This document shows, one piece after another, positions 23,931-36,730 of a stretch of DNA of 60,604 bases (within the stretch, counting starts at the first letter, position 1; each line of letters opens with the position of its first letter). The stretch is from Candidatus Moraniibacteriota bacterium (GTDB taxonomy: Bacteria; Patescibacteriota; Minisyncoccia; Moranbacterales; UBA9337). The stretch covers positions 1 to 60,604 of the forward strand of contig JALSQF010000003.1 of NCBI GenBank assembly GCA_026985555.1, given 5' to 3'. A model generated the notes under the pieces. The model ran no database searches, had not been told where the DNA came from, and was given only the letters and a program-made list of their open reading frames with translations. A program made the position numbers and the translations under genes.

Positions 23931-24305
23931 ATGCAATTATCAGAAAAAGTAATGGATCATTTTCGTAATCCACGTAATCAAGGTAAAATTAAAAATGCGG
24001 ATGCAGAAGCTCAAGCTGTAAGTTCTCATTGTGGTGATTCAACCACAATTTATTTAAAGGTTAAAAAAGATAAGGATGGTTTTCAATACATTAGTGATAT
24101 TGGGTTTGAAACTATGGGTTGTGGTGCGGCAGTGGCATCAGCTTCTGTTACCACAGAACTAGCTAAAAATAAAAAAATAGAGGAAGCTTTAAAAATTAGT
24201 GTAGATGATGTTGCTAAAGAATTAGAAGGATTGCCTTTACCTAAAATACATTGCGGACAATTAGCTGTAGAAGCTTTACATAAAGCAATTAAGCAAATTA
24301 GTTAA
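23931..24305 (+). CDS. iscU: IscU/NifU-type Fe-S cluster scaffold
   Basis: VMDHFRNPRN.G, HCGD, FETMGCGAAVA, KIHC..LA..AL..AI. Confidence 0.9.
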   Translation: MQLSEKVMDHFRNPRNQGKIKNADAEAQAVSSHCGDSTTIYLKVKKDKDGFQYISDIGFETMGCGAAVASASVTTELAKNKKIEEALKISVDDVAKELEGLPLPKIHCGQLAVEALHKAIKQIS

Positions 24306-24325
24306 TTTTTTATTTTTTTAAAATA

Positions 24326-24904
24326 ATGGAAGAAACAAAAAAACCAACTATTTTATTAGTTGATGATGATGACAGTATAAGAGAAATATATTCTTATGCT
24401 TTTCGGAACGCTAATTTTAATGTGCTAGAAGCACAAGATGGGTTAGAAGGATTAGAAATAGCTACCAATAAAACGCCAGATGTTATTTTTACCGGAATAG
24501 TAATGCCTAGAATGGATGGTTTTACCCTGATGGAAAATTTAGCTAAAAATGTTAAGACAGCTAGAATTCCTGTTTTCATTTCTTCGCATATGGGACGTGA
24601 AGAAGATAGGCAGAAAGCTAATAAATTAGGAGCAAAAGGTTTTATTGTGCGTGATTTAGTTTCTCCTGTAGAAGTCGTAGAAGAAATTAGCAGAGTTCTA
24701 TCTAAAGGAGGAGTCTATCGTATAGATTTTGATTCTTATGTTTTGGATGCTCCTCGTTTAGCTCAGTCATTAGGGTTAAATAATAATTTTCAATGTCGGG
24801 AATGTGATGAAAAAATGGTTTTAGAAATAAAATTACAAGATAATTCACAGTGTTCTATGAAAGCTAAATTAGTTTGCCCTAAGTGTGGTTGGGAAACAGA
24901 ATGA
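24326..24904 (+). CDS. Atypical (pseudo-)receiver domain protein with a C-terminal zinc-ribbon-like domain
   Basis: ILLVDDD, then PDVIFTGIVMPRMDG (Gly at the phospho-Asp position); CRECD...CPKCG. Confidence 0.85.
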   Translation: MEETKKPTILLVDDDDSIREIYSYAFRNANFNVLEAQDGLEGLEIATNKTPDVIFTGIVMPRMDGFTLMENLAKNVKTARIPVFISSHMGREEDRQKANKLGAKGFIVRDLVSPVEVVEEISRVLSKGGVYRIDFDSYVLDAPRLAQSLGLNNNFQCRECDEKMVLEIKLQDNSQCSMKAKLVCPKCGWETE

Positions 24905-24992
24905 TAAGATAAAAAATTGAAAATAAAATAATAATGAAGATAAATTTATTATATATAAACTCAGAAAAGAATTTAAGGACATTTAAGTAAGA

Positions 24993-27900
24993 ATGATCCA
25001 GGAAATGAGAAAAGAAAAAGAAAAAGAAAAATTAAATAAGATGTTTATTAACCGAAAGAAAATCAAGTTTTTGGGGAAGTTTTTTTCTGTTTTAAAAAAG
25101 AAAAAGAAAAGAAAAAAGAGGGAACAATCTTTTCAAGATTTAAATGCTTTTTTTTCTAATTATGAATTAAAAACGAGAAAAAGTTTTGGTAAAAGAATGC
25201 TGAGGCATCTTTTTTGGATGAAATTATTTAATTTTATATTTTTTCCTTTTAAGATAATTCAATGGAATATTCTTAAGAAAATAATTCTTAAAGGAGGATA
25301 TAGTTTTTTAGTAATTATTTTAATTATTTTTGTAGTATATGCTTTGGGACCAGGTGTTTTAAGTGCACCTAAATCAGTTATAGTTACTACTCAACAAGAA
25401 TGGGAAAGTGGAACAGCGGTTAATATTTCTACAACTAGTTCTTCTGATGCTATTCAATTATTGGCAGATGGTAATTGGACAGCTAGGACATGGGCACCGT
25501 CTCCAGACACTCTTTCTTTTGGTTCTACTTCAGTTTTAGTCGGTAATTATTTATATGTAACGAGGGGATACGGAGATAAATCTTTTTATCGTTACAATAC
25601 TTTAAAAAATAAATGGGATACTTTAACTGATCTTCCTCAACCAGCGCATGCAGGTTGTGATGCTGTTTATGATAATAATGGAAATATTTATTTTATTTTT
25701 GGCGGATATTCTAAGAAATTTTATAAATATAATATAGAAAGTGCTACCTGGACAGAGTTACCAGATTTGCTAGATACTATTTATTATGGTGCTAGTATTG
25801 AATTTGATGGAACAAATTTATATATTGCACGAGGTCAGGCGACGACTGATTTTTGGAAATTTAATATTGCTGAAAATTCTTGGTATAATCTTGCTCCAGC
25901 TCCATATACTCTTTATAGAGGAAGTAATATGGTTTATGGTCAGGATGGATATATGTATGTAACTAGGGGATATAATCGTAATACTTTTTTTCGTTATGAT
26001 ATTGCTAATAATACTTGGGATAGTTTAGCGAATGCACCGATTACCTTTTACGGAGCAACTAAAGGAACTTATTATAATGGTTACATTTATTATTTAAGAT
26101 CAAATAATAGTAATATTTTTTATAGATATAGTATTAGTGGAAATTCGTGGGAAAGTTTAGAAAATGCTCCTGCTAATGTTAATTATACATCTTTAAATTA
26201 TAACAGCAATGATGGAATGATGTATGTTTTGCAAGGAAATGGTCAATATCGTTTATGGAAATTTAATCCTACAGCGGGAACAAATGGTCAGTGGGTAGGA
26301 CCCAAGAATCTTCCAGGAACAGTTAATACAGGAGGTGATTTAATATGGAATGGAGTTTCTGGTGCAGGAGGATATTTATATGCAATTAGAGGAGGAAATA
26401 ATTTTTATCGTTATGACATAAGTAATAATGACTGGAGCACTTTAGCTAATCCTCCGGCTAACTTAAGTTATGGGACAAAAGGAACTTATCATGATGGATA
26501 TATTTATATTCCGCGAGGGAATGGGAATACTTTTTATCGTTATGATACAAATACAGATACCTGGACAACCTTAGCAGATGCTCCTGGTAGTTTACGTTAC
26601 GGTTCTTGTGCAGCATATAATAGTGGTGATGGATATATTTATATGACACGAGGAAATGGAACTAATGATTTTTATCGTTATGATATTACAAGTGATAGTT
26701 GGACAACTTTATCAGACATAATTTCTAGTGCTGGAGTAAATTATAGAGTTTATGTGGGTGGTCGTTTAATAAGTGATGGGAATGATTTATATTTAATGCC
26801 TGGAGATGGAGAAACTGCTTTTCTTAAATATGATATTAGTATTGGAACATGGGAAGAATTAGCCAGAACACCTTTTGCACAATATTATGGAACAGATATG
26901 GATTATTATAATGGAAAAATATATGCTCTAGCAGGTTATTATAAAGATGAAACATGGGAATATAACATAGCTAACAATGTATGGAGAAAGCTACCCTCTA
27001 ATCAAAAATATACTTATGGAAGAGGTCCTTATAATGGAGCATCCTTGGTTTATGCTGGAAATAATTCTTTTTATGCTACTCCTGGTATGGGCTTGAGTGA
27101 TATGTGGAGCTATTCTCTTGGAACGAACAATTATTTAAATTCTGGAACTTATACTAGCAATATTTTAGATTTATCTTATGTCTCTAGTTGGATATCGTTA
27201 ACTTATAATGGAGATGAACCGGCTAATACTAGTATTTCAGTAGAAACAAGAACAAGTGCTGATGGAGAGAATTGGTCAAATTGGATAGCTCTTTCGGGTA
27301 GCAACATACAATCTCCTACAAATCGTTATATTCAAGTAAGATTTACTCTTAATAGCACAGACGGAGTGTATACACCCACCGTATATGATTTTACGGTAGC
27401 TTATAATAGTGAAGACAATCCTCCAAATAATCCTAGTAGTGTAAATGCTTATTCTCAAAGAATTAATGGTGATCCATTAACTTCTGGAATAGCTTATAAA
27501 TATGCACATCCTTATTTTTCATGGACGGGTGCTTCCGATAATGAGTCAGGAATTGCAGGATATTATGTTTATTTTGGTACTGATTCTAATGCTGATCCAG
27601 AGACAGAGGGAGTTTATCAAGTAGCTAGCGATTATGTTGTTAATTTAGCTATGCAAACTGGAAATTATTATTTAAGAATTAAAACTAAAGATAAAGACGG
27701 TAATATTACTAGTTCAACCTTTGATGCTTTTACTTATAATTACAATGGAGTGTCACCTTTTTTAACAGAAACGAAAACAACTCAAGAAGATTTTAGCAAT
27801 GGAACATTAGAAAATGTGGAGAGTCTAAGTAGTGATAAAATGAGATTATCTTCTATATCTGGAGCTGGTTTTTGGAATGAAAATCGTTTATCTTATGCTC

Positions 27901-30900
27901 CTGGAGGAATACGTTATGGAGGAGAATTGGCTTATGCAGAATCAGAAGGTAAATTGTATACTTTGAGAGGAAATAATACAACTAATTTTTATTCTTATGA
28001 TATTGCTTCAGATACTTGGGAAACTTTAGCTAACACACCTGCTTCAGTAAGAATGGGAGGAGCGGTTGTGGAAGGTCCAGATGGATATTTATATGCTACA
28101 AGAGGAAATAATACTTCAGATTTTTGGCGATATGATATTGCTAACAATACTTGGTCTGTGATGGCCAGCGCTCCTAAAAATTTTTATTATGGGGGATCTT
28201 TGAGTTATGACGGTAATCGTTATATTTATGCCTTTCCAGGGAACGATGATGCTTTTTATCGTTATGATACTCAAAATAATATTTGGACAACTCTTACTAA
28301 TGCAGAATTTGGAAATCCTAATGAAGGAGATGGTCAAAGAGTTTATGTAGGATCAGATAGTGTTTATGATGGTTCTAATAATATTTACGTGATGCAAGGA
28401 AATTATTATCCATATTTTGCTAAATATTCTATCAATGATAATTCTGAAGCAGGAGAAAGTGCTGATACTTGGACACCTTTAGCTAAAGCTCCGGCAGGAA
28501 TTTATGCTGGAGGTAGTTTAGCTTATGATGAAGAAAGCAATGCTATTTATATGTTAAGTGGTAATTGGAGACAAAATTTCTTTAAATATGATATTGATTC
28601 TAATGTTTGGACAGAATTACCTAAAGCTCCCGTATATGTGGAATACGGAGCGTCTTTAAAAGTTGTTAATGGCTACATTTATATGATTAGAGGAGCTGGT
28701 TCAACTAGTTTTTATCGTTTTAATATAGAAGAAAATTCATGGGAAACTCCACAACGAGGTTTTTTTGGGCCATCTAATATAGGAGGGGGAAGTTATTTTA
28801 CTTTTTATTATGGAACAGATATTGCACGAGATGACAATGGTAATATTTATATGATTAGAGGAGCAAGAGATAACACTTTTGGTAGGTATAATATTAAAAC
28901 AGGTGAATTTATAAAATTAGCAAAAATACCGGTGGGTGTTTATAACGGAGCTAATTTATTGTATGTTAGCGATGAAAATGCAATTTATTTGGTAGCGGGC
29001 GATATGAGAACTAGAAGAAATAATGGAGAAAATAATTATTTTATGAAATATGATATAGATAATAATTCATGGGAGATAATTACTCAAGACAGAGTTCCTA
29101 ATCAAGTTTATTACGGTTCTTCTATGACTTATGATGGAAGTCGTTACATTTATTTAACTAGAGGTGGTAATGGAAATTATTGGTGGCGTTATGATACACA
29201 AGCTAGTGCAGGATCACGTTGGTCAAGTAGATTACCGACCACATCAGGGTGGACTCAAGGATATGGAGCTAGAATCTTATATAAAGATAATTATATTTAT
29301 TCAATTAGAGGGCAAAACACAAATACTTTTTGGCGTTATGATATAAATGCAGGTACCTGGAGTCAGCTTAGCAATGTGCCAGGAAATGTTTACATAGGAG
29401 GATCTTTAGAAGACGGACAGGATGGTTATTTATATGTAACAAGAGGATATAATAGTAGTGATTTCTTTCGCTATAATATAGCTACAGATAGTTGGGAAAC
29501 TATTGAAAATGTTCCTGGTCAAATATATTATGGTGGAAGTTCAACTTATTCAAGTAGTAGAATTTGGGCAACTACAGGAGGTGGATCTAATTCTTACAGA
29601 GATGGTTTATATAGTTATGTAATAAGTTCGGCTAGTAATGGAACTGGTTTTCAAAAAACGGGTACTTATATATCGGAACCAATAGATTTAACAGCAGTTT
29701 ATAAATGGGCTAATTTAACTATCAATTATACAACGCCTGATAATACAAATTTAGTTATTTCTACACGAAGTTCTGAGGATGGAAATAGTTGGTCTGCCTG
29801 GGATCAAGTTTCTAATAAAAAAGAACTAGGATCTAATCAATATCGTTATTCTATAGTTTCTCCAGTTAATCGTTATATCCAAGTAAAAATAGATTATGTG
29901 TCCAGTGATAAAATCTATTCTCCTAGTGTAGAGGAATATTCTATAAATTATTATCAAGATATTCAAGCTCCAGATAATCCTACTAATATTAGTGCTTATA
30001 GTGCTAGTGATAAATCTACAGCAATAAATACGGGAACATGGTATAACTATAATTCTCCTTATTTTGAATGGCCCTTAGCAGAAACTCCAGGTGGTGCTAG
30101 TGATGGATCGGGTGGTTCAGGAGTAGTGGGTTATTGGGTTTATTTTGGTACTGATTCTAGTGCTGATCCTTTCGTGGATGGAATTTATCAAACAACCAAT
30201 TCTTATACAGCTAGCAATTTAAATTCAGATCAAACATATTATTTAAAAATAAAAGCAATAGATGATGCAGGTATGATACCGGCTAATTCTTACGATGCTT
30301 TTACATATAGATTTGACAATACGCCACCTACTAATCCTAGCGATATATCTGTTACTCCAGCTGGTTATACAGCTAGTGATAGCTATACTTTTCTATGGGA
30401 GTCAGATGCTTCCGATGCGAGTTCTGGTATAGCTAAGTTTCAATATAGAACAGGAGGAGATACTAGTGGAACATGGTTTGATATTGATAATACAAGCGTA
30501 GTTACTATTAGTATTCCTAATGCGGATCATGCTGACGGAGCTTATCAATCTGGAAAAAACTGGTTTTATTTAAGAGCAGTTGATAATGCTGGAAATGTTT
30601 CTAATCCTTTAGCTCAAGAATATTATTATAGTGCATCAGCTCCTTCTCCTCCTCAAAATTTAAGCGTTAGTCCGGTATATTCTACTGATAATTTGTTTGC
30701 GTTTCAGTGGGATCAACCAGCTACTTTTATTGGAGATGGAACCAAATTAAAATATTATTACTCAGTTAATGCTCTACCTAATGCTTATAATACAATAGAA
30801 ACTACACTTACTTCAGCTGGGCCAGGTCCTTTTGCAACACAGAAAGGTTCTAATAGATTTTATGTAGTGGCTATGGATGAAGCGGGAAATATTGATTATG

Positions 30901-32453
30901 ATTTGTATAGTTATGTTGATTTTACAGCTGATACTACCGCTCCAGCTGCTCCTCAGAATGTTCAAATATTTGATACTTCTGATAGAGAAAATAAAGAATA
31001 CAGTGTAGCTATAAAATGGAGTCCGCCTGCGGGAGCTGACAATGATAATTTTGATGGTTATGTAATTTATAGATCATTAACAGAAAACGGAAGTTATACT
31101 AAAGTAGCAACTACTTCTGGAACAGCTTATGTGGATACAAATTTAGAAAGCAAGCGTTATTATTATTATGTTAAATCAAAAGATAATACTAATAATTTAT
31201 CCATAGCTTCTACTAAAGTAACTATTATACCCACAGGAAGGTATACTAAACCACCAAATCTTACTCAAGATCCTAAAGTTAGCGAGCAATCTTTTGCAGC
31301 TACTTTCACATGGGGAACTAATCGTGTAGCCAGTTCTTTTGTAGAATATGGTAAAAGTATTAAGTTAGGAAAAACCAATGGGCAAGTAGATAGTGTAACT
31401 GATCATAAAGTAGTAGTAACTGGTTTAGAAGCTGGAACAAAATATTATTATAGGGTAAAATATATTGATCCTGATGGTAATATAGGAACGTCTGAAATTA
31501 AGAATTTTACCACCTTACCGCCACCAACAGTTTCTGATTTTACGGTTACAGATATTAAGTTAGATAATGCCTATGTTTCTTGGAAAACTAATACTAGCGC
31601 TATATGTACTTTGAAATATGGAGCAGGTAGTTATTCTAATTCTATTGAAGAAACAGCTAGTGCTTCTAATCATATAGAGAAAGTAACAGGACTAACAGCA
31701 GAAACTAACTATCAAGTGCAAGTAGAATGTATAGATCAAGATAATAATAGTTTCACTTCTGATCAATATAGTTTTTCTACTCCAGTTAAACCAGTAGCAA
31801 GTAATATTAAAGTGGAAAATAAAGAAAATGTAGATCTACCAACAGTTATTATAGAATATAAGACAAATGTGCCAACAACTACTTTGATTTATTTTAAAAC
31901 TAATGAAGAAAGTTCCTCTCATACTTATTTAAAAGAAGAAAAAGTGACAGAACATAAGGCTGAAATAGAAGGATTAAACCCAGCTAAAGAATATACTTTA
32001 AATATTACTGGAACTGATGAAAATGGAATAAGTATTAAAAAAGTAGAGCAAAAGATAACTACTAAATCAGATTCTCGTCCTCCAGAAATTACTACCAATA
32101 GAGCCATAGGTAAAGTGATAGGAAGAGGGAATAGTTCTCAAGCCAATATTTATGTTAAAATAGAAACCAATGAACCAACTACTGTAAAAATTAATTACGC
32201 TAAAGGTGTAACAACTTCTGGGTTTGAGCAATCTACAGGAGAAGATCCGTTGAACACCTATCATTTAATTACTATACCGGCTGAAATTGGTCAAATTTAT
32301 AGTTATCAGGTAAAAGCTACCGATGAAGCTGGCAACGTAACCAATACTAAAGCCGCTACAGTAGTAGTAGGAAGAGCTAAACGTTCGGCGCTAGAAATAA
32401 TTGGAACAACAGCGGAAGAAAAATTTGGTTGGTTGTTAGAAATATGGAAATAA
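24993..32453 (+). CDS. Giant (2486 aa) membrane-anchored Kelch beta-propeller / fibronectin type III surface protein
   Basis: Basic N-terminus plus TM helix; two blocks of 12 Kelch-like repeats (G...Y..RG...FYRY.....W..L...P); multiple FN3/Ig-like repeats. Confidence 0.9.
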   Translation: MIQEMRKEKEKEKLNKMFINRKKIKFLGKFFSVLKKKKKRKKREQSFQDLNAFFSNYELKTRKSFGKRMLRHLFWMKLFNFIFFPFKIIQWNILKKIILKGGYSFLVIILIIFVVYALGPGVLSAPKSVIVTTQQEWESGTAVNISTTSSSDAIQLLADGNWTARTWAPSPDTLSFGSTSVLVGNYLYVTRGYGDKSFYRYNTLKNKWDTLTDLPQPAHAGCDAVYDNNGNIYFIFGGYSKKFYKYNIESATWTELPDLLDTIYYGASIEFDGTNLYIARGQATTDFWKFNIAENSWYNLAPAPYTLYRGSNMVYGQDGYMYVTRGYNRNTFFRYDIANNTWDSLANAPITFYGATKGTYYNGYIYYLRSNNSNIFYRYSISGNSWESLENAPANVNYTSLNYNSNDGMMYVLQGNGQYRLWKFNPTAGTNGQWVGPKNLPGTVNTGGDLIWNGVSGAGGYLYAIRGGNNFYRYDISNNDWSTLANPPANLSYGTKGTYHDGYIYIPRGNGNTFYRYDTNTDTWTTLADAPGSLRYGSCAAYNSGDGYIYMTRGNGTNDFYRYDITSDSWTTLSDIISSAGVNYRVYVGGRLISDGNDLYLMPGDGETAFLKYDISIGTWEELARTPFAQYYGTDMDYYNGKIYALAGYYKDETWEYNIANNVWRKLPSNQKYTYGRGPYNGASLVYAGNNSFYATPGMGLSDMWSYSLGTNNYLNSGTYTSNILDLSYVSSWISLTYNGDEPANTSISVETRTSADGENWSNWIALSGSNIQSPTNRYIQVRFTLNSTDGVYTPTVYDFTVAYNSEDNPPNNPSSVNAYSQRINGDPLTSGIAYKYAHPYFSWTGASDNESGIAGYYVYFGTDSNADPETEGVYQVASDYVVNLAMQTGNYYLRIKTKDKDGNITSSTFDAFTYNYNGVSPFLTETKTTQEDFSNGTLENVESLSSDKMRLSSISGAGFWNENRLSYAPGGIRYGGELAYAESEGKLYTLRGNNTTNFYSYDIASDTWETLANTPASVRMGGAVVEGPDGYLYATRGNNTSDFWRYDIANNTWSVMASAPKNFYYGGSLSYDGNRYIYAFPGNDDAFYRYDTQNNIWTTLTNAEFGNPNEGDGQRVYVGSDSVYDGSNNIYVMQGNYYPYFAKYSINDNSEAGESADTWTPLAKAPAGIYAGGSLAYDEESNAIYMLSGNWRQNFFKYDIDSNVWTELPKAPVYVEYGASLKVVNGYIYMIRGAGSTSFYRFNIEENSWETPQRGFFGPSNIGGGSYFTFYYGTDIARDDNGNIYMIRGARDNTFGRYNIKTGEFIKLAKIPVGVYNGANLLYVSDENAIYLVAGDMRTRRNNGENNYFMKYDIDNNSWEIITQDRVPNQVYYGSSMTYDGSRYIYLTRGGNGNYWWRYDTQASAGSRWSSRLPTTSGWTQGYGARILYKDNYIYSIRGQNTNTFWRYDINAGTWSQLSNVPGNVYIGGSLEDGQDGYLYVTRGYNSSDFFRYNIATDSWETIENVPGQIYYGGSSTYSSSRIWATTGGGSNSYRDGLYSYVISSASNGTGFQKTGTYISEPIDLTAVYKWANLTINYTTPDNTNLVISTRSSEDGNSWSAWDQVSNKKELGSNQYRYSIVSPVNRYIQVKIDYVSSDKIYSPSVEEYSINYYQDIQAPDNPTNISAYSASDKSTAINTGTWYNYNSPYFEWPLAETPGGASDGSGGSGVVGYWVYFGTDSSADPFVDGIYQTTNSYTASNLNSDQTYYLKIKAIDDAGMIPANSYDAFTYRFDNTPPTNPSDISVTPAGYTASDSYTFLWESDASDASSGIAKFQYRTGGDTSGTWFDIDNTSVVTISIPNADHADGAYQSGKNWFYLRAVDNAGNVSNPLAQEYYYSASAPSPPQNLSVSPVYSTDNLFAFQWDQPATFIGDGTKLKYYYSVNALPNAYNTIETTLTSAGPGPFATQKGSNRFYVVAMDEAGNIDYDLYSYVDFTADTTAPAAPQNVQIFDTSDRENKEYSVAIKWSPPAGADNDNFDGYVIYRSLTENGSYTKVATTSGTAYVDTNLESKRYYYYVKSKDNTNNLSIASTKVTIIPTGRYTKPPNLTQDPKVSEQSFAATFTWGTNRVASSFVEYGKSIKLGKTNGQVDSVTDHKVVVTGLEAGTKYYYRVKYIDPDGNIGTSEIKNFTTLPPPTVSDFTVTDIKLDNAYVSWKTNTSAICTLKYGAGSYSNSIEETASASNHIEKVTGLTAETNYQVQVECIDQDNNSFTSDQYSFSTPVKPVASNIKVENKENVDLPTVIIEYKTNVPTTTLIYFKTNEESSSHTYLKEEKVTEHKAEIEGLNPAKEYTLNITGTDENGISIKKVEQKITTKSDSRPPEITTNRAIGKVIGRGNSSQANIYVKIETNEPTTVKINYAKGVTTSGFEQSTGEDPLNTYHLITIPAEIGQIYSYQVKATDEAGNVTNTKAATVVVGRAKRSALEIIGTTAEEKFGWLLEIWK

Positions 32454-32482
32454 AAAATAATCAAAAAGTTTAATAATTTTAT

Positions 32483-33214
32483 ATGGAAGAAGTAGCTATT
32501 AAAATTGAAAAACTAAGTAAAAGTTTTCAGGTAGGTAAAAATAATATTCCAGTTCTTTTTGATATTGATTTAGAAATTAACAAAGGAGATTTCACTATGT
32601 TAGTCGGTCCTTCTGGTTGTGGAAAATCTACTTTATTGCATATAATTTATGGATTAGAATCTCCAACAAAGGGTAAGGTTTATATTGACGGATATGATAT
32701 CTGGGAAAAAACTAAAGATTGGAGAGCCTATTTTCGCAACCAAAAAGTCGGATTCATTCCTCAACAGGCTTTCTGGATAAAATCACTTACAGTAATAGAA
32801 AATATTGCTATTCCAGCTGTTATTGGTGGAGAAAGTTTTAAAGATGCAGCAGAAAGAGCAGCTAAACTGATAGAATTAGTGGGCATGGAAAAATGGGCTG
32901 ATTATCGTCCCTATGATTTATCAGGAGGGCAACAACAAAAAATTGCTTTAGCGCGTTCTTTATTGTTAAATCCAGCTTTTATAATTGCGGATGAACCTAC
33001 TGGTAATTTAGATCAAAAAGCGGGTAAAAATTTGTTATTATTATTGCGTGATATTAATAAAAAGTTTGGTATAACTATACTTATGGTTACACATGATTTG
33101 AATCAATATAAATATGCCTCTAGAATAGTAAATATGTTAGATGGAAAAATTGTTTCTAATATAATTAACAAACATGGCATAGATTTTATAGCTAATAGTG
33201 ATAGAAAAAAATAA
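32483..33214 (+). CDS. ABC transporter ATP-binding protein, LolD/MacB/FtsE type
   Basis: GPSGCGKS, LSGGQQQ, ADEPTGNLD, VTHD. Confidence 0.95.
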   Translation: MEEVAIKIEKLSKSFQVGKNNIPVLFDIDLEINKGDFTMLVGPSGCGKSTLLHIIYGLESPTKGKVYIDGYDIWEKTKDWRAYFRNQKVGFIPQQAFWIKSLTVIENIAIPAVIGGESFKDAAERAAKLIELVGMEKWADYRPYDLSGGQQQKIALARSLLLNPAFIIADEPTGNLDQKAGKNLLLLLRDINKKFGITILMVTHDLNQYKYASRIVNMLDGKIVSNIINKHGIDFIANSDRKK

Positions 33215-33215
33215 A

Positions 33216-34559
33216 ATGAGAAATATTTTTTGTAAAAAAATGAGGAAAATTTTTAAAAATCTTTTGGACAAAACAAAGACAATATTTTTAAAGCTATTTT
33301 TAAGTCAATCTAAAAAAAATTATTCAGATGATTTACAAAATATTCGTCGTATGCGTTTAGCTTCAGTTATTTATATCAGTTATCGTAATTTAATGGTAAA
33401 TAAATTACGTTCATTTTTAACTATTGCTGGAGTAAGTGTGGGGATAGGAATTGTAACTTTTTTAATTTGTATTGGTTTTGGTGTTCAAAAAATGATAGTG
33501 AATGAAGTTACTAAAAAAAATCCTATTGATGTGATTAATGTTAATAATAAGAAATTGGATAATTTTGTTTCTTTAAATGAAAAGAATGTGGAAAAAATTA
33601 AAAAAATAAATGGAGTAGAAGATGTAGCGGTAAAAGTAAATACAGGGGGAAAAATTTATTTTGATAATTATCAAACAGATGTAATTATTTATGGAACAAC
33701 AAAAAAATATTTTGAGCTATCTAATATTCCAGTAAAATATGGAACGATAGATTTAAAAGATAGTGCTAGTAAAGCAGCTATTTCTACTAAAGCAGCTAGC
33801 ATTTTAGGTTTTAAAAATCCTAAAGATATTATTGGAAAAAGTATTAAGTTTGATATTATTCTTTCTAGAGAAACAAATTCTGATTTAAAAGAGGAGAAAA
33901 ATATTACAGATAATGAAGCAGAGGTGGTAGCGGTTATAGATGATAATAATGCAATTGTTTGGTTTCCATCTTGTTGTCTTAAAGATAAATTCAAAATAGA
34001 TTTAGCTCAAGAAGGAAAAGTTAAAATAAAATCAACAGATGAAGCTAAAATGAGTGAAATAAGAAAAAATATAGAGGTTTTAGGTTTTAATACAGAAAGC
34101 GTAATAGATGTAATTAATGATATTAATTCTTTTTTCTGGGGAGTGAAAATTGTTTTAATCATCTTTGGTGTGATTATTATGTCCATTTCAGCTATGGGAA
34201 TGCTGAATACTTTAAGTGTATCTTTATTACAAAGAACAAAAGAAGTGGGAATTTTAAAAGCTTTAGGAGCTAAAAGAAAAGATATTTTTAAAATGTTTAT
34301 CTTGGAGGCAGCAATCATTAGTTTTTTAGGAGGAATAATTGGTTTTTTTGGTGGCTATGGTTTAGCTAAAATATTTAATATTTTTTTCAATTTATTGGCT
34401 CATCAGAGAAATCTAGAATCGGTAGCTTTTATTTATATTCCTAGTTATTTTGTGATAGCTCTAGTTGTCTTTATTGCCTTCTTAGGTTTAGTAACAGGAA
34501 TTGGTCCTGCCAGAAGAGCCGCTTATATTCATGCGTTAGATGCTTTACGTTATGAATAG
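33216..34559 (+). CDS. ABC transporter permease, MacB/FtsX type
   Basis: KLRSFLTIAGVSVGIG (TM1), large extracytoplasmic domain, GMLNTLSVSLLQRTKEVGILKALGA, PARRAA...ALDALRYE. Confidence 0.93.
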   Translation: MRNIFCKKMRKIFKNLLDKTKTIFLKLFLSQSKKNYSDDLQNIRRMRLASVIYISYRNLMVNKLRSFLTIAGVSVGIGIVTFLICIGFGVQKMIVNEVTKKNPIDVINVNNKKLDNFVSLNEKNVEKIKKINGVEDVAVKVNTGGKIYFDNYQTDVIIYGTTKKYFELSNIPVKYGTIDLKDSASKAAISTKAASILGFKNPKDIIGKSIKFDIILSRETNSDLKEEKNITDNEAEVVAVIDDNNAIVWFPSCCLKDKFKIDLAQEGKVKIKSTDEAKMSEIRKNIEVLGFNTESVIDVINDINSFFWGVKIVLIIFGVIIMSISAMGMLNTLSVSLLQRTKEVGILKALGAKRKDIFKMFILEAAIISFLGGIIGFFGGYGLAKIFNIFFNLLAHQRNLESVAFIYIPSYFVIALVVFIAFLGLVTGIGPARRAAYIHALDALRYE

Positions 34560-34628
34560 TAGAAAAAATAAGCTAGTTTGTTATAATATAACTGAAAACT
34601 AATAATGGATTTTTAAAAAGTAATTTTT

Positions 34629-35744
34629 ATGATCAAAAAAGCTTTTTCGTGGTTATTTCTATTTTTGTTTTTATTGTTGGTAACTGGTTGCCAGAAAAAT
34701 AATTCTATTGTTCAAAATAAACCTTCTCAAAAAATAGAATGGGGTGGGTTTTTAATTTCTAACGATGGAGGGAAAACATGGGAAATGAAAAATAAAGCAG
34801 GCGAGAAAAATATTTTTAATTTAAATATTTTGTCCTTAGATGTTGCTTCTCAAGGATATTTACAAACTATTTTTTTTGGAACAAAAAATAAAGGAATACT
34901 TAAAAGTATCGCTGGTGAAGATTGGGAACATTTACAATCTTTTAATTTAGTAGATGTGTATGCTTTAGCTGTTGATGAAAAAAAAGATCAACAGGACCAA
35001 TTACTAATTAATGTTTATGCAGTTGGTTCAGAAAAAAAACGAGGAAAAATTTATAAAAGTAAAGATGGAGGAGAAACATGGAAAGAAATTTACACAGAAC
35101 CAAAAGAAGGAATAAAAGTTATAAGTTTGGCTTTAGATTCCCAGGGTTGGCTTTATGCCGGAGATACGAAAGGAAGTTTATTTAGAAGTAAAGATGGAGG
35201 CGAAACATGGGAAAATGTTTTTATAGCTTCGGCTCCAATAGTGAAAATAAAAATAGATAAAAAGGATAATAATATAATTTATCTTTTACTTTATAAAAAA
35301 GGTGTTTTATTTAGCGTAGATAGAGGGAAAGAGTTTCATTCTATTGAAGAATTTAATCAAGAAAAGATTAAAAATATTATACAAGGAAAAGATGAAAAGA
35401 TTGATTTAGGAACTGTTTATTCTATTGCTTTAGATGAAAAAGAGAAGGGTTGTGTTTATCTAGGAACAGATAAGGGCGTATTTTATAGTCAAAATGCAGG
35501 TAAAAAATTGTATAAATTAAATACTCTAGGAAGTTCTAATGGATTTCCCATAAAAGCATTAGCTATTAGTCCTTTTAATTCTCAAAAAATAATTTATACG
35601 GCTGGTAAAACTATTTATGTTTCTGATAACAAAGGAAAAACATGGAGAACTTTTCAGTTAGATACTAACAAAGAAATTACCAATTTATTTTTTAGCAGAG
35701 ATAATACTGAAGTTATTTTTGCTACAATGGGACAAAGTAAATAG
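34629..35744 (+). CDS. BNR/Asp-box (YCF48-like) beta-propeller lipoprotein
   Basis: Lipobox-like LVTGC; repeated S.DGG.TW (SNDGGKTW, SKDGGETW x2, SDNKGKTW). Confidence 0.85.
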   Translation: MIKKAFSWLFLFLFLLLVTGCQKNNSIVQNKPSQKIEWGGFLISNDGGKTWEMKNKAGEKNIFNLNILSLDVASQGYLQTIFFGTKNKGILKSIAGEDWEHLQSFNLVDVYALAVDEKKDQQDQLLINVYAVGSEKKRGKIYKSKDGGETWKEIYTEPKEGIKVISLALDSQGWLYAGDTKGSLFRSKDGGETWENVFIASAPIVKIKIDKKDNNIIYLLLYKKGVLFSVDRGKEFHSIEEFNQEKIKNIIQGKDEKIDLGTVYSIALDEKEKGCVYLGTDKGVFYSQNAGKKLYKLNTLGSSNGFPIKALAISPFNSQKIIYTAGKTIYVSDNKGKTWRTFQLDTNKEITNLFFSRDNTEVIFATMGQSK

Positions 35745-35768
35745 TAATTAAAAATAATTTTAAAAAAT

Positions 35769-36326
35769 ATGTATCAAAAAATTATTTCTTCCAAAAAAAG
35801 TGATTTAGAAAAAGCCATAATATTTTTTCAACAAGAAATAGGAAAAATTCGCACAGGGAGAGCTAATCCAGGATTAGTGGAAAATTTAATGATAGATTAT
35901 TATGGCAACAAAACTCCTCTTAAGCAAGCTGCTAATATTAGTGTTCCGGAACCACGTTTAATTGTTATTCAGCCTTGGAATATAGATAGTTTAGCTAATA
36001 TAGAAGCGGCTATAAAAATGTCTGATTTGGGACTTAATCCTAGTAATGATGGAAAGGTAATTAGGATTAATTTGCCACCATTAACAGAAGAAAGAAGAAA
36101 GGATTTAGTAAAACTTCTTAATCAAAAAGCGGAAGAAACCAGAGTAGCTATTCGCAATATTCGCGAAGAAATTTGGAAAAAAATTCAACAAGCAGAAACA
36201 GAAGGAGATATTTCCGAAGATGATAAATATAGAGGAAAAGAAAGGTTAGAAGAAATAATTAGTGAATATAATCAAAAAATAGAAGAAATAAGAGTAAAAA
36301 AAGAAAAAGAAATAATGACGGTTTAA
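35769..36326 (+). CDS. frr: Ribosome recycling factor
   Basis: IRTGRANP, YYG..TPL.Q.A.I, LNP.NDG..IR...PPLTEERRK.LVK, RVAIRNIR. Confidence 0.98.
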   Translation: MYQKIISSKKSDLEKAIIFFQQEIGKIRTGRANPGLVENLMIDYYGNKTPLKQAANISVPEPRLIVIQPWNIDSLANIEAAIKMSDLGLNPSNDGKVIRINLPPLTEERRKDLVKLLNQKAEETRVAIRNIREEIWKKIQQAETEGDISEDDKYRGKERLEEIISEYNQKIEEIRVKKEKEIMTV

Positions 36327-36379
36327 ATTATTTAGCAAAAATGTTAAAATATTAATATTAAATAAATTAATTAAAATAT

Positions 36380-36730
36380 ATGGAAAAGAAAAAAATTATT
36401 TACACTATTTTAGTAGCAGTTGTTTTAATAATAATGGTTTTGTTTTCAGTTTATTATTATCAAAAACAAGAAATAAAGTTGCAGTCATTAGAAAAAACGT
36501 CAGTTAAAACAGAAAAAGAAATAAAAGCTAATCAAAATAATCAAAAAGAAGAATCTAATAATAATCAAATTCAGCCAAAAAATAATGAAAAAATAGTAAA
36601 GGAAGTAAACATAGAAAATACTAACATTGATTTTGATGAGGATAGTTTAGAAGGAGAGGAAGATAATATTAGTGATGATGATATTGATCAGATAAATGAT
36701 TTGGATAAATTAGATCAAGAAAGTTTTTAA
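36380..36730 (+). CDS. Small single-TM protein with an acidic tail
   Basis: KKK plus hydrophobic helix; low-complexity N/Q/E region; D/E-rich C-terminus. Confidence 0.75.
   Translation: MEKKKIIYTILVAVVLIIMVLFSVYYYQKQEIKLQSLEKTSVKTEKEIKANQNNQKEESNNNQIQPKNNEKIVKEVNIENTNIDFDEDSLEGEEDNISDDDIDQINDLDKLDQESF

Follow-up and report, generated by a model that had tools for sequence, protein, structure and literature searches.

A three-gene module that recurs across Patescibacteria links giant surface proteins to a MacB-type ABC ATPase and permease

In a 60,604-nucleotide stretch of DNA from Candidatus Moraniibacteriota bacterium (contig JALSQF010000003.1, positions 1 to 60,604 of the forward strand; hereafter the window), a gene for a giant surface protein of 2486 amino acids (24993-32453, + strand) is the first of a three-gene module. 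It is followed by a gene for the ATPase of an ATP-binding cassette (ABC) system (32483-33214, +; 243 amino acids), a LolD/MacB-type nucleotide-binding subunit, and by one for a MacB/FtsX-type permease (33216-34559, +; 447 amino acids counted from the ATG; an alternative GTG start at 33198 would overlap the ATPase gene by 17 nt). We found that the three genes are inherited as one set across Moranbacteria and that modules built in the same way are spread across Patescibacteria. Because the three-gene unit recurs across the phylum, the module looks like an undescribed system for the ATP-driven handling of giant surface proteins. A first-pass annotation of the window, made from the sequence alone, had proposed an export or assembly operon of four genes, the fourth being the downstream gene for a BNR/Sortilin-like lipoprotein (34629-35744, +). 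The map of open reading frames (ORFs) agrees with the gene order and with the gaps of 29, 1 and 69 nt on which that proposal was built, and Pfam and NCBIfam matches agree with the domains it assigned to all four proteins; the lipoprotein gene adjoins the module and was tested as a member of it, and was excluded.

Close orthologues of the permease (54-64% identity) are present in few of 40 relatives, and each of the five relatives with enough contig keeps the order giant, ATPase, permease, with giants that are 57-65% identical over their full length. A permease-profile scan of public genomes added 14 further Moranbacteria loci, all 14 with these three genes in this order, so that in total a giant lies upstream at 19 of the 19 loci reached through the permease. 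Loci found through the last 300 amino acids of the giant have the ATPase directly downstream in 38/38 cases where the C-terminus of the giant lies inside the contig, and the permease is also present in 35/35 cases with room for it. Moreover, a search of 319 genomes of the order (ATPase threshold E<=1e-58, with the last 650 amino acids of the giant used to test for its presence) gave 92 ATPase matches in 89 genomes and 29 genera, and 89 of these 92 are directly behind a giant that matches the one in the window; the other three are contig-end fragments, or have the giant 1.8 kb upstream. For the 87 pairs in which a gap separates the aligned ends of giant and ATPase, the median distance is 119 nt; in two further pairs the ends overlap by a few bases. 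Note that in two seeming cases of a giant with no ABC pair (G008 and G020) the contig ends, and the ATPase can still be seen.

When the ORFs at the 19 loci were clustered all against all, three families were common to all of the loci, and the next best family was present in only four. No extra helper gene is conserved across these loci, and the flanking genes differ between the window, genus g8 and G038. (A mobile element as the cause of the variable flanks was rejected because no integrase or transposase is conserved beside the module at the 19 loci.) The idea that giant and MacB-type ABC pair make up a dedicated unit is therefore upheld by the counts of 19/19, 38/38 and 89/92, and comparison of neighborhoods, the check that the first-pass annotation had proposed, found no orthologues of the ABC pair of this clade apart from giants.

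Full-length orthologues of the window giant (class 1) have 48-75% identity, are ~2480-2700 amino acids long and always have the ABC pair next to them. Class-2 giants (~2000-2100 amino acids; 31-37% identity to the last 650 amino acids of the window giant) are followed by an ATPase (46-49% identity) and a longer permease in nine of nine sampled members. Some genomes hold several modules (two or three, as in G564, G403 and G502), or tandem giants that share one ABC pair; G122 has three tandem giants and then one ATPase-permease pair.

To survey the phylum we used an even set of 401 genomes and the last 400 amino acids of the giant as the query for the stalk. Matches were giant ORFs of 1000-3700 amino acids in 85 genomes and 80 genera. 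At 17 of the 20 best stalk loci in other families, giant, ATPase and permease follow one another with gaps of tens of bases, and 51 of 77 ATPase matches in the sample have a stalk match directly upstream. Counted by genome, 48 carry both, 37 the stalk only, 13 the ATPase only and 303 neither, an odds ratio of 30 that is uncorrected for phylogeny; of the 'stalk-only' genomes, 14 were fetched, and seven of them do carry the ABC pair, just below the ATPase threshold. The build of the module is the same at the loci of the order and of the phylum, namely a giant with an FN3-like stalk and a terminal helix of the type ..[DE][IL][IV]....[FL]G[WF].., then the ATPase, then the permease, and the window locus has this build. 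A profile of the last 300 amino acids matched 1004 cluster representatives at E<=1e-30 among 1.8 billion proteins, and very frequently the match falls at the far C-terminal end of a protein of 1000-7300 amino acids.

The giant of the window has Pfam matches to many Kelch repeats (Kelch_6, E 5e-57) and to fn3. Sequence reading and an alignment of 14 orthologues delimit a Lys/Arg-rich N-terminal segment (residues 1-100; 24993-25292, +) that is variable in length and basic in composition, that contains a semi-conserved L.EF...YE-LK.RKS.G motif, and that, from its predicted topology, is probably cytoplasmic. A single hydrophobic segment follows (residues 101-125; 25293-25367, +; from the alignment), which would be a signal-anchor or a signal peptide. 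Class-1 giants have a conserved LSA|P junction at the end of this segment; in other classes of the superfamily its place is taken by AxA-like sites. A proline immediately after the alanine may block signal peptidase I, and the proline of this junction may prevent cleavage of the N-terminal helix of the giant. Beyond it are two head modules, the first composed of Kelch beta-propeller repeats and a beta-sandwich unit (residues 219-922; 25647-27758, +; Pfam) and the second a duplicate of the first (residues 975-1779; 27915-30329, +; Pfam Kelch; 30% identity between the two, E 2e-85). The C-terminal stalk (approximately residues 1791-2465; 30363-32387, +) consists of FN3-like beta-sandwich domains, with Pfam matches to fn3 and Pur_ac_phosph_N, and is the portion that is common to ABC-linked giants bearing different heads. 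An AlphaFold2 model of the last 300 amino acids contains three beta-sandwiches and then a helix, with a predicted local distance difference test score (pLDDT) of 87.9. Identity to the G016 orthologue is 64.6% for the giant, 64% for frr and 39% for the BNR lipoprotein; the giant thus equals frr in conservation, which speaks for a central role. (Conservation at the level of a housekeeping gene is unusual for a surface adhesin-like protein.)

The C-terminal helix predicted by AlphaFold2 (residues 2466-2485, ALEIIGTTAEEKFGWLLEIW; 32388-32447, +) is a candidate handle or anchor. The terminal sequence of the giant, ...SALEIIGTTAEEKFGWLLEIWK, is exactly as the first-pass annotation had quoted it. Its description as an amphipathic tail stands in part. 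The motif is conserved, with A, E, T, F and W positions that do not vary among 14 orthologues (A..E.I...T....F.W) and the same type of tail across the phylum (approximately S-[VA]-[LF]-[DE]-[IL]-[IV]-[VL]-..-[LF]-..-[ST]-[FL]-G-[WF]-L), and a helix is indeed predicted, but amphipathicity is weak in the window copy, whose hydrophobic moment of 0.29 is reached by 22% of shuffled sequences; several relatives have higher moments (0.42-0.48). The tail is a helix of ~20 residues with charged residues and has neither an LPXTG-like motif nor a hydrophobic run of transmembrane length. (A sorting signal of the sortase, PEP-CTERM or GlyGly-CTERM kind was rejected, there being no combination of short motif, transmembrane helix and basic tail.) We found no second protein with such a tail in this genome, in which the giant is the only ORF of more than 1700 amino acids.

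The subtype of the tail varies with the size of the permease ectodomain. A G-W tail is present at seven of nine loci with permeases of 395-406 amino acids, the class to which the window belongs (permeases of ~413-447 amino acids) has F-[GSN]-W tails, and a G-W tail is found at 0/10 loci with permeases of 506-760 amino acids. Nine of these last ten have readable tails, which are FGF or I[LF]G[QR] (the tenth was not recovered), and their permeases carry an insert in the ectodomain that has no Pfam match. This covariation is consistent with the tail region touching the permease ectodomain directly, but the loci are not phylogenetically independent. (Permeases with ectodomain inserts of ~300 amino acids, with no Pfam match, are encoded at class-2 modules of one family, L123-L126, e.g. 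L124:5542-6963, where a conserved CHASE4-PAS sensor protein comes next.)

The ABC pair itself has the hallmarks of the type VII ABC superfamily. Systems of this type use ATP to move an extracytoplasmic domain, with no passage of substrate through the membrane (PMC8277102). The ATPase matches ABC_tran in Pfam, its best NCBIfam matches are LolD, DevA, FtsE and MacB, all below the equivalog cut-offs, and its best matches in the PDB are MJ0796, LolD and MacB. Its catalytic motifs are intact in the translation (Walker A GPSGCGKST, signature LSGGQQQ, Walker B IIADEPT with its Glu, and H-loop VTHD), which makes it a cognate nucleotide-binding domain of the LolD/MacB/FtsE group, as a type VII system should have. 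The permease matches MacB_PCD over residues 66-287 (profile positions 1-205 of 207) and FtsX over residues 315-437, and consists of a first transmembrane helix (TM1), an ectodomain of ~200 amino acids (~33513-34100) and TM2-4; four transmembrane helices, the first two of them separated by a large extracytoplasmic core domain, are the other mark of type VII. In an AlphaFold2 model of the permease (pLDDT 76), TM1 is followed by an ectodomain of alpha/beta type and by three more long helices, and Foldseek matched this model to MacB (5nik_J, TM score 0.70), YtrF (9o9x_C, 0.69/0.71) and LolE (~0.6). The Foldseek matches to MacB, YtrF and LolC/E have a probability of 1.00, with the best E-values to MacB, and the best PDB match by profile is YtrF of Bacillus subtilis (E 4e-37). 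Equivalog scores are 216.5 for LolD (cut-off 307.75), 51.3 for lolCE (362.45), 177.3 for FtsE (264.85) and 43.8 for FtsX_Gpos (225). Since the cut-offs for LolD, LolCE, FtsE, FtsX and MacB are missed widely, the pair belongs to the type VII superfamily and to none of its named systems. Its fold suggests that the pair may work by mechanotransmission.

We consider it likely that the giant is the target, direct or indirect, of the action of its ABC pair. With less assurance, we favor a reading in which the pair acts at the outer face of the membrane on the membrane-proximal C-terminal stalk and helix. The giant would be exported by Sec, with its Kelch heads projecting outward, and the ABC pair would not be its carrier across the membrane. 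Rather, like its relatives FtsEX, LolCDE and HrtBA, the pair would be a mechanotransducer or extractor that engages the last FN3-like domains and the terminal helix, and ATP binding and hydrolysis would switch this end of the giant back and forth between being held and being released or altered in conformation. The net effect would be that the fibre is anchored, deployed or freed. Contact at the C-terminal end is supported by the finding that, among ABC-linked giants, the heads vary while stalk and tail are shared. The more specific suggestion of the first-pass annotation, that the tail is a recognition or anchor element for the ABC pair, is unproven, and the mechanism that it named, a machine to release, position or power the giant, is conjectural.

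Several observations weigh against the favored reading. An identical type of tail is found on many giants with no adjacent ABC pair, which speaks against recognition specific to the tail. Class-3 giants of the order, which share only the last ~380 amino acids, mostly have no ABC pair next to them; about one third of full-length stalk matches in the phylum sample have none within ~5-6 kb; and the ATPase of this clade was not seen in some of the genomes that have tailed giants. The co-occurrence statistic for genomes ignores shared ancestry, and the covariation of tail and permease is likewise uncorrected for it. The tail helix of the window copy is barely amphipathic, to a degree that is not significant against shuffles, and the N-terminal anchor of the giant could equally be the element that is acted on. 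Finally, the sequencing runs found to contain the locus are of DNA only, with no RNA runs among them.

An N-terminal target is the basis of one alternative, in which the ABC pair, in the manner of LolCDE or HrtBA, would pull the signal-anchor or another lipid-embedded segment of the giant from the outer leaflet, and thereby finish export or release the giant to the wall or the medium, leaving the C-terminal helix for oligomerization, wall binding or some other purpose. Proven extractors are known among type VII ABC systems, the permease has LolE among its structural matches, the conserved junction after the hydrophobic helix of class-1 giants may be uncleavable, and the tail is present also on giants with no ABC pair. 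We nevertheless judge this unlikely, given that N-termini are poorly conserved among ABC-linked giants, other classes of which have ordinary AxA-like cleavage sites, and that stalk and tail are the shared part, with a tail subtype that covaries with the permease ectodomain. The same covariation tells against an indirect link, in which the pair would handle a small molecule, lipid, glycan or peptide tied to the activity of the giant and make no contact with it, for example by exporting a ligand or by protecting the cell against what the fibre delivers or binds. Gene linkage alone fits direct and indirect coupling alike, and the family members MacB, BceAB, HrtBA and YbbAP act on small molecules, to go by the titles of their PDB entries. 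However, pairing is one-to-one and is repeated within genomes, such that each giant or giant array has its own pair, and the module contains no other conserved gene, such as one for an enzyme or adaptor; an indirect link accordingly strikes us as quite improbable.

It is more improbable still that the ABC pair reads the uncleaved C-terminal tail and translocates the giant, as LapB does for LapA or HlyB for HlyA. A giant adhesin beside an ABC system and a conserved extreme C-terminus would be in keeping with such type 1 secretion, yet the permease is of the four-helix MacB/FtsX type rather than a type IV exporter, the giant has an N-terminal Sec-type hydrophobic segment of its own and no RTX repeats, and dimers of the MacB type have no transmembrane channel (PMC8277102).

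The fourth gene of the operon as originally proposed encodes a lipoprotein with Pfam matches to BNR and Sortilin-Vps10 and a VTGC lipobox. That it is a component of the machine we regard as barely credible. In the window it is co-oriented with the module and lies 69 nt downstream, but this co-orientation of four genes is weak evidence because every gene between 13816 and 37717 is on the + strand. A homologue of the lipoprotein was found in none of the other module loci examined, and it is a single-copy gene in 37 of 41 relatives, irrespective of whether they have the module; the contig that carries it in G016, G007, G019 and G038 is not the one with the module. Moreover, in both G016 and G004 it is directly upstream of frr, as it is in the window (frr, 35769-36326, +, directly after the lipoprotein gene). 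The presence of this arrangement elsewhere indicates that lipoprotein gene and frr are the conserved pair and that the module is merely upstream of them in the window genome. The 69-nt gap also contains a promoter-like site (34560-34587; 10/12 matches, with an extended -10 TG), which is a weak hint against membership because such sites occur at chance level in AT-rich DNA. The lipoprotein is thus, judging from these comparisons of gene content and order, an unrelated core gene that is downstream of the module here by chance.

None of the systems to which the module can be likened accommodates it. FtsEX, with its partners EnvC, PcsB, CwlO or RipC, resembles the module in having a separate ATPase and a four-helix FtsX-type permease and in working in monoderms, and it resembles the mechanism proposed here in that ATP turnover inside the cell alters an outside protein partner bound through a helical element. 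In contrast to FtsX, which has a smaller ectodomain, the module permease has a full MacB core domain (MacB_PCD 1-205/207), and its partner is a Kelch/FN3 fibre of 2486 amino acids encoded upstream rather than an activator of peptidoglycan hydrolases; membership of FtsEX was rejected on account of this ectodomain and of equivalog scores far below the cut-off. YtrEF of B. subtilis (PDB 9o9x) is likewise a two-gene ATPase and permease of a monoderm and has the closest solved permease by profile and by fold, but identity is only ~22% and the ytrGABCDEF operon context is absent at the module. No giant partner is known for YtrEF, the function of which is itself unsettled.

LolCDE is similar in that a LolD-like ATPase is the best NCBIfam match and LolC and LolE are among the structural matches, and similar to the proposal in that a membrane-embedded end of a protein is extracted or held at the outer leaflet. 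It differs in having a LolC/LolE heterodimer where the module has one permease gene, and the module belongs to a monoderm lineage and shows no outer-membrane or LolA/B partner; the single permease gene, together with LolD and lolCE scores below the equivalog cut-offs, led us to reject membership. The permease shares the MacB fold and periplasmic core domain with MacAB-TolC, but the nucleotide-binding domain is not fused to it and the linked partner is a giant protein; membership of this system was rejected because ATPase and permease are separate genes and no MacA adaptor or TolC is among the conserved neighbors at the 19 loci. RTX adhesins with type 1 secretion (LapA/LapBCE, SiiE) also place a giant repetitive adhesin-like protein with a conserved C-terminus beside an ABC system. 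Their ABC systems, however, are of type IV rather than type VII. In addition, the module giant lacks RTX repeats and carries an N-terminal segment of the Sec type, its putative binding heads are N-terminal and its stalk C-terminal, and the module has no membrane-fusion or outer-membrane component. Type 1 secretion was rejected as the identity of the module on the basis of the FtsX-type permease, the N-terminal hydrophobic segment of the giant and the lack of other conserved neighbors.

Bacteria belonging to the Candidate Phyla Radiation (CPR), or Patescibacteria, are ultra-small and mostly uncultured epibionts. To our knowledge, how they attach to their hosts is largely unclear, and we know of no account of how giant surface proteins are mounted on a cell with such a minimal envelope. 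The known partners of type VII mechanotransmission ABC systems are hydrolase activators, lipoproteins and small molecules. Large surface proteins have been noted in Patescibacteria and are prime suspects in host attachment (PMC13059738). We found no description of a module of giant and MacB-type ABC pair in the literature covered (full text, including the preprints on giant genes and on the Pam pilus; subscription journals were outside this coverage). The strictly linked ABC pair offers a concrete, testable partner for the giants of the CPR, and the giant fibre, conversely, would be a new class of partner for the type VII family. We infer that what is new here is a type VII ABC mechanotransducer with this class of partner, together with a new conserved C-terminal element. 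A bolder reading, which we consider possible but doubtful, is that the C-terminal helix ('FGW-CTERM'), at the foot of the FN3 stalk, is a ligand recognized specifically by a dedicated type VII ABC complex, which would be both a socket in the membrane and an ATP-driven actuator, in a sortase-independent mounting system found throughout the Patescibacteria. If so, the ABC complex would hold, tension or release the fibre by which epibionts grasp their hosts, and tailed giants with no ABC pair of their own would be served in trans.

The genome from which the window comes is of the CPR type (0.74 Mb, ~28% GC, 94.9% complete), and the giant gene makes up 1% of its DNA. An independent study (run X2) yielded an assembly that contains the whole locus (100% of sampled words); the locus is therefore not an assembly chimera. 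Scans of 24200-36500 found 64 promoter-like sites against 64.6 expected, i.e. chance level, and zero terminator-like sites, so these scans are uninformative on transcription units.

Other genes accompany individual modules. Directly upstream of the window giant is a receiver-like gene (24326-24904), which is absent from all other class-1 loci; its homologues (36-42% identity) are directly downstream of tail-bearing class-3 giants at L132:5888-6235 (G013) and L133:5647-6033 (G004), two genomes of the same family. Receiver-like gene and tailed giants may thus be in a recurring but loose association. Four class-1 loci (L021:1458-1655, L022, L042 and L046) have a gene for a MerR-type helix-turn-helix protein of 65 amino acids directly upstream of the giant, which may be a local regulator, and a U32-like gene is downstream of the module at four loci of one genus. 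The module of G016 is interrupted between ATPase and permease by a class-A beta-lactamase-like gene (L023:10766-11815; Beta-lactamase2, E 3e-38). (Note that several public contigs with a Moranbacteria-type module, namely L042/L178, L183, L191, L195, L197 and L199, bear the names Melioribacter roseus, Candidatus Fimivivens or Bdellovibrionales, probably through binning or labelling errors.)

A second MacB-type pair is present in nearly all relatives (L026-L040, e.g. L029:8909-11455). It consists of an ATPase of ~435 amino acids, which carries a C-terminal extension of ~200 amino acids, and a permease of 400 amino acids, often with folD next to it. No copy with this ATPase extension was found in the window genome (94.9% complete; C3, C6 and C10), where the best match to the second pair is the giant-linked pair itself.

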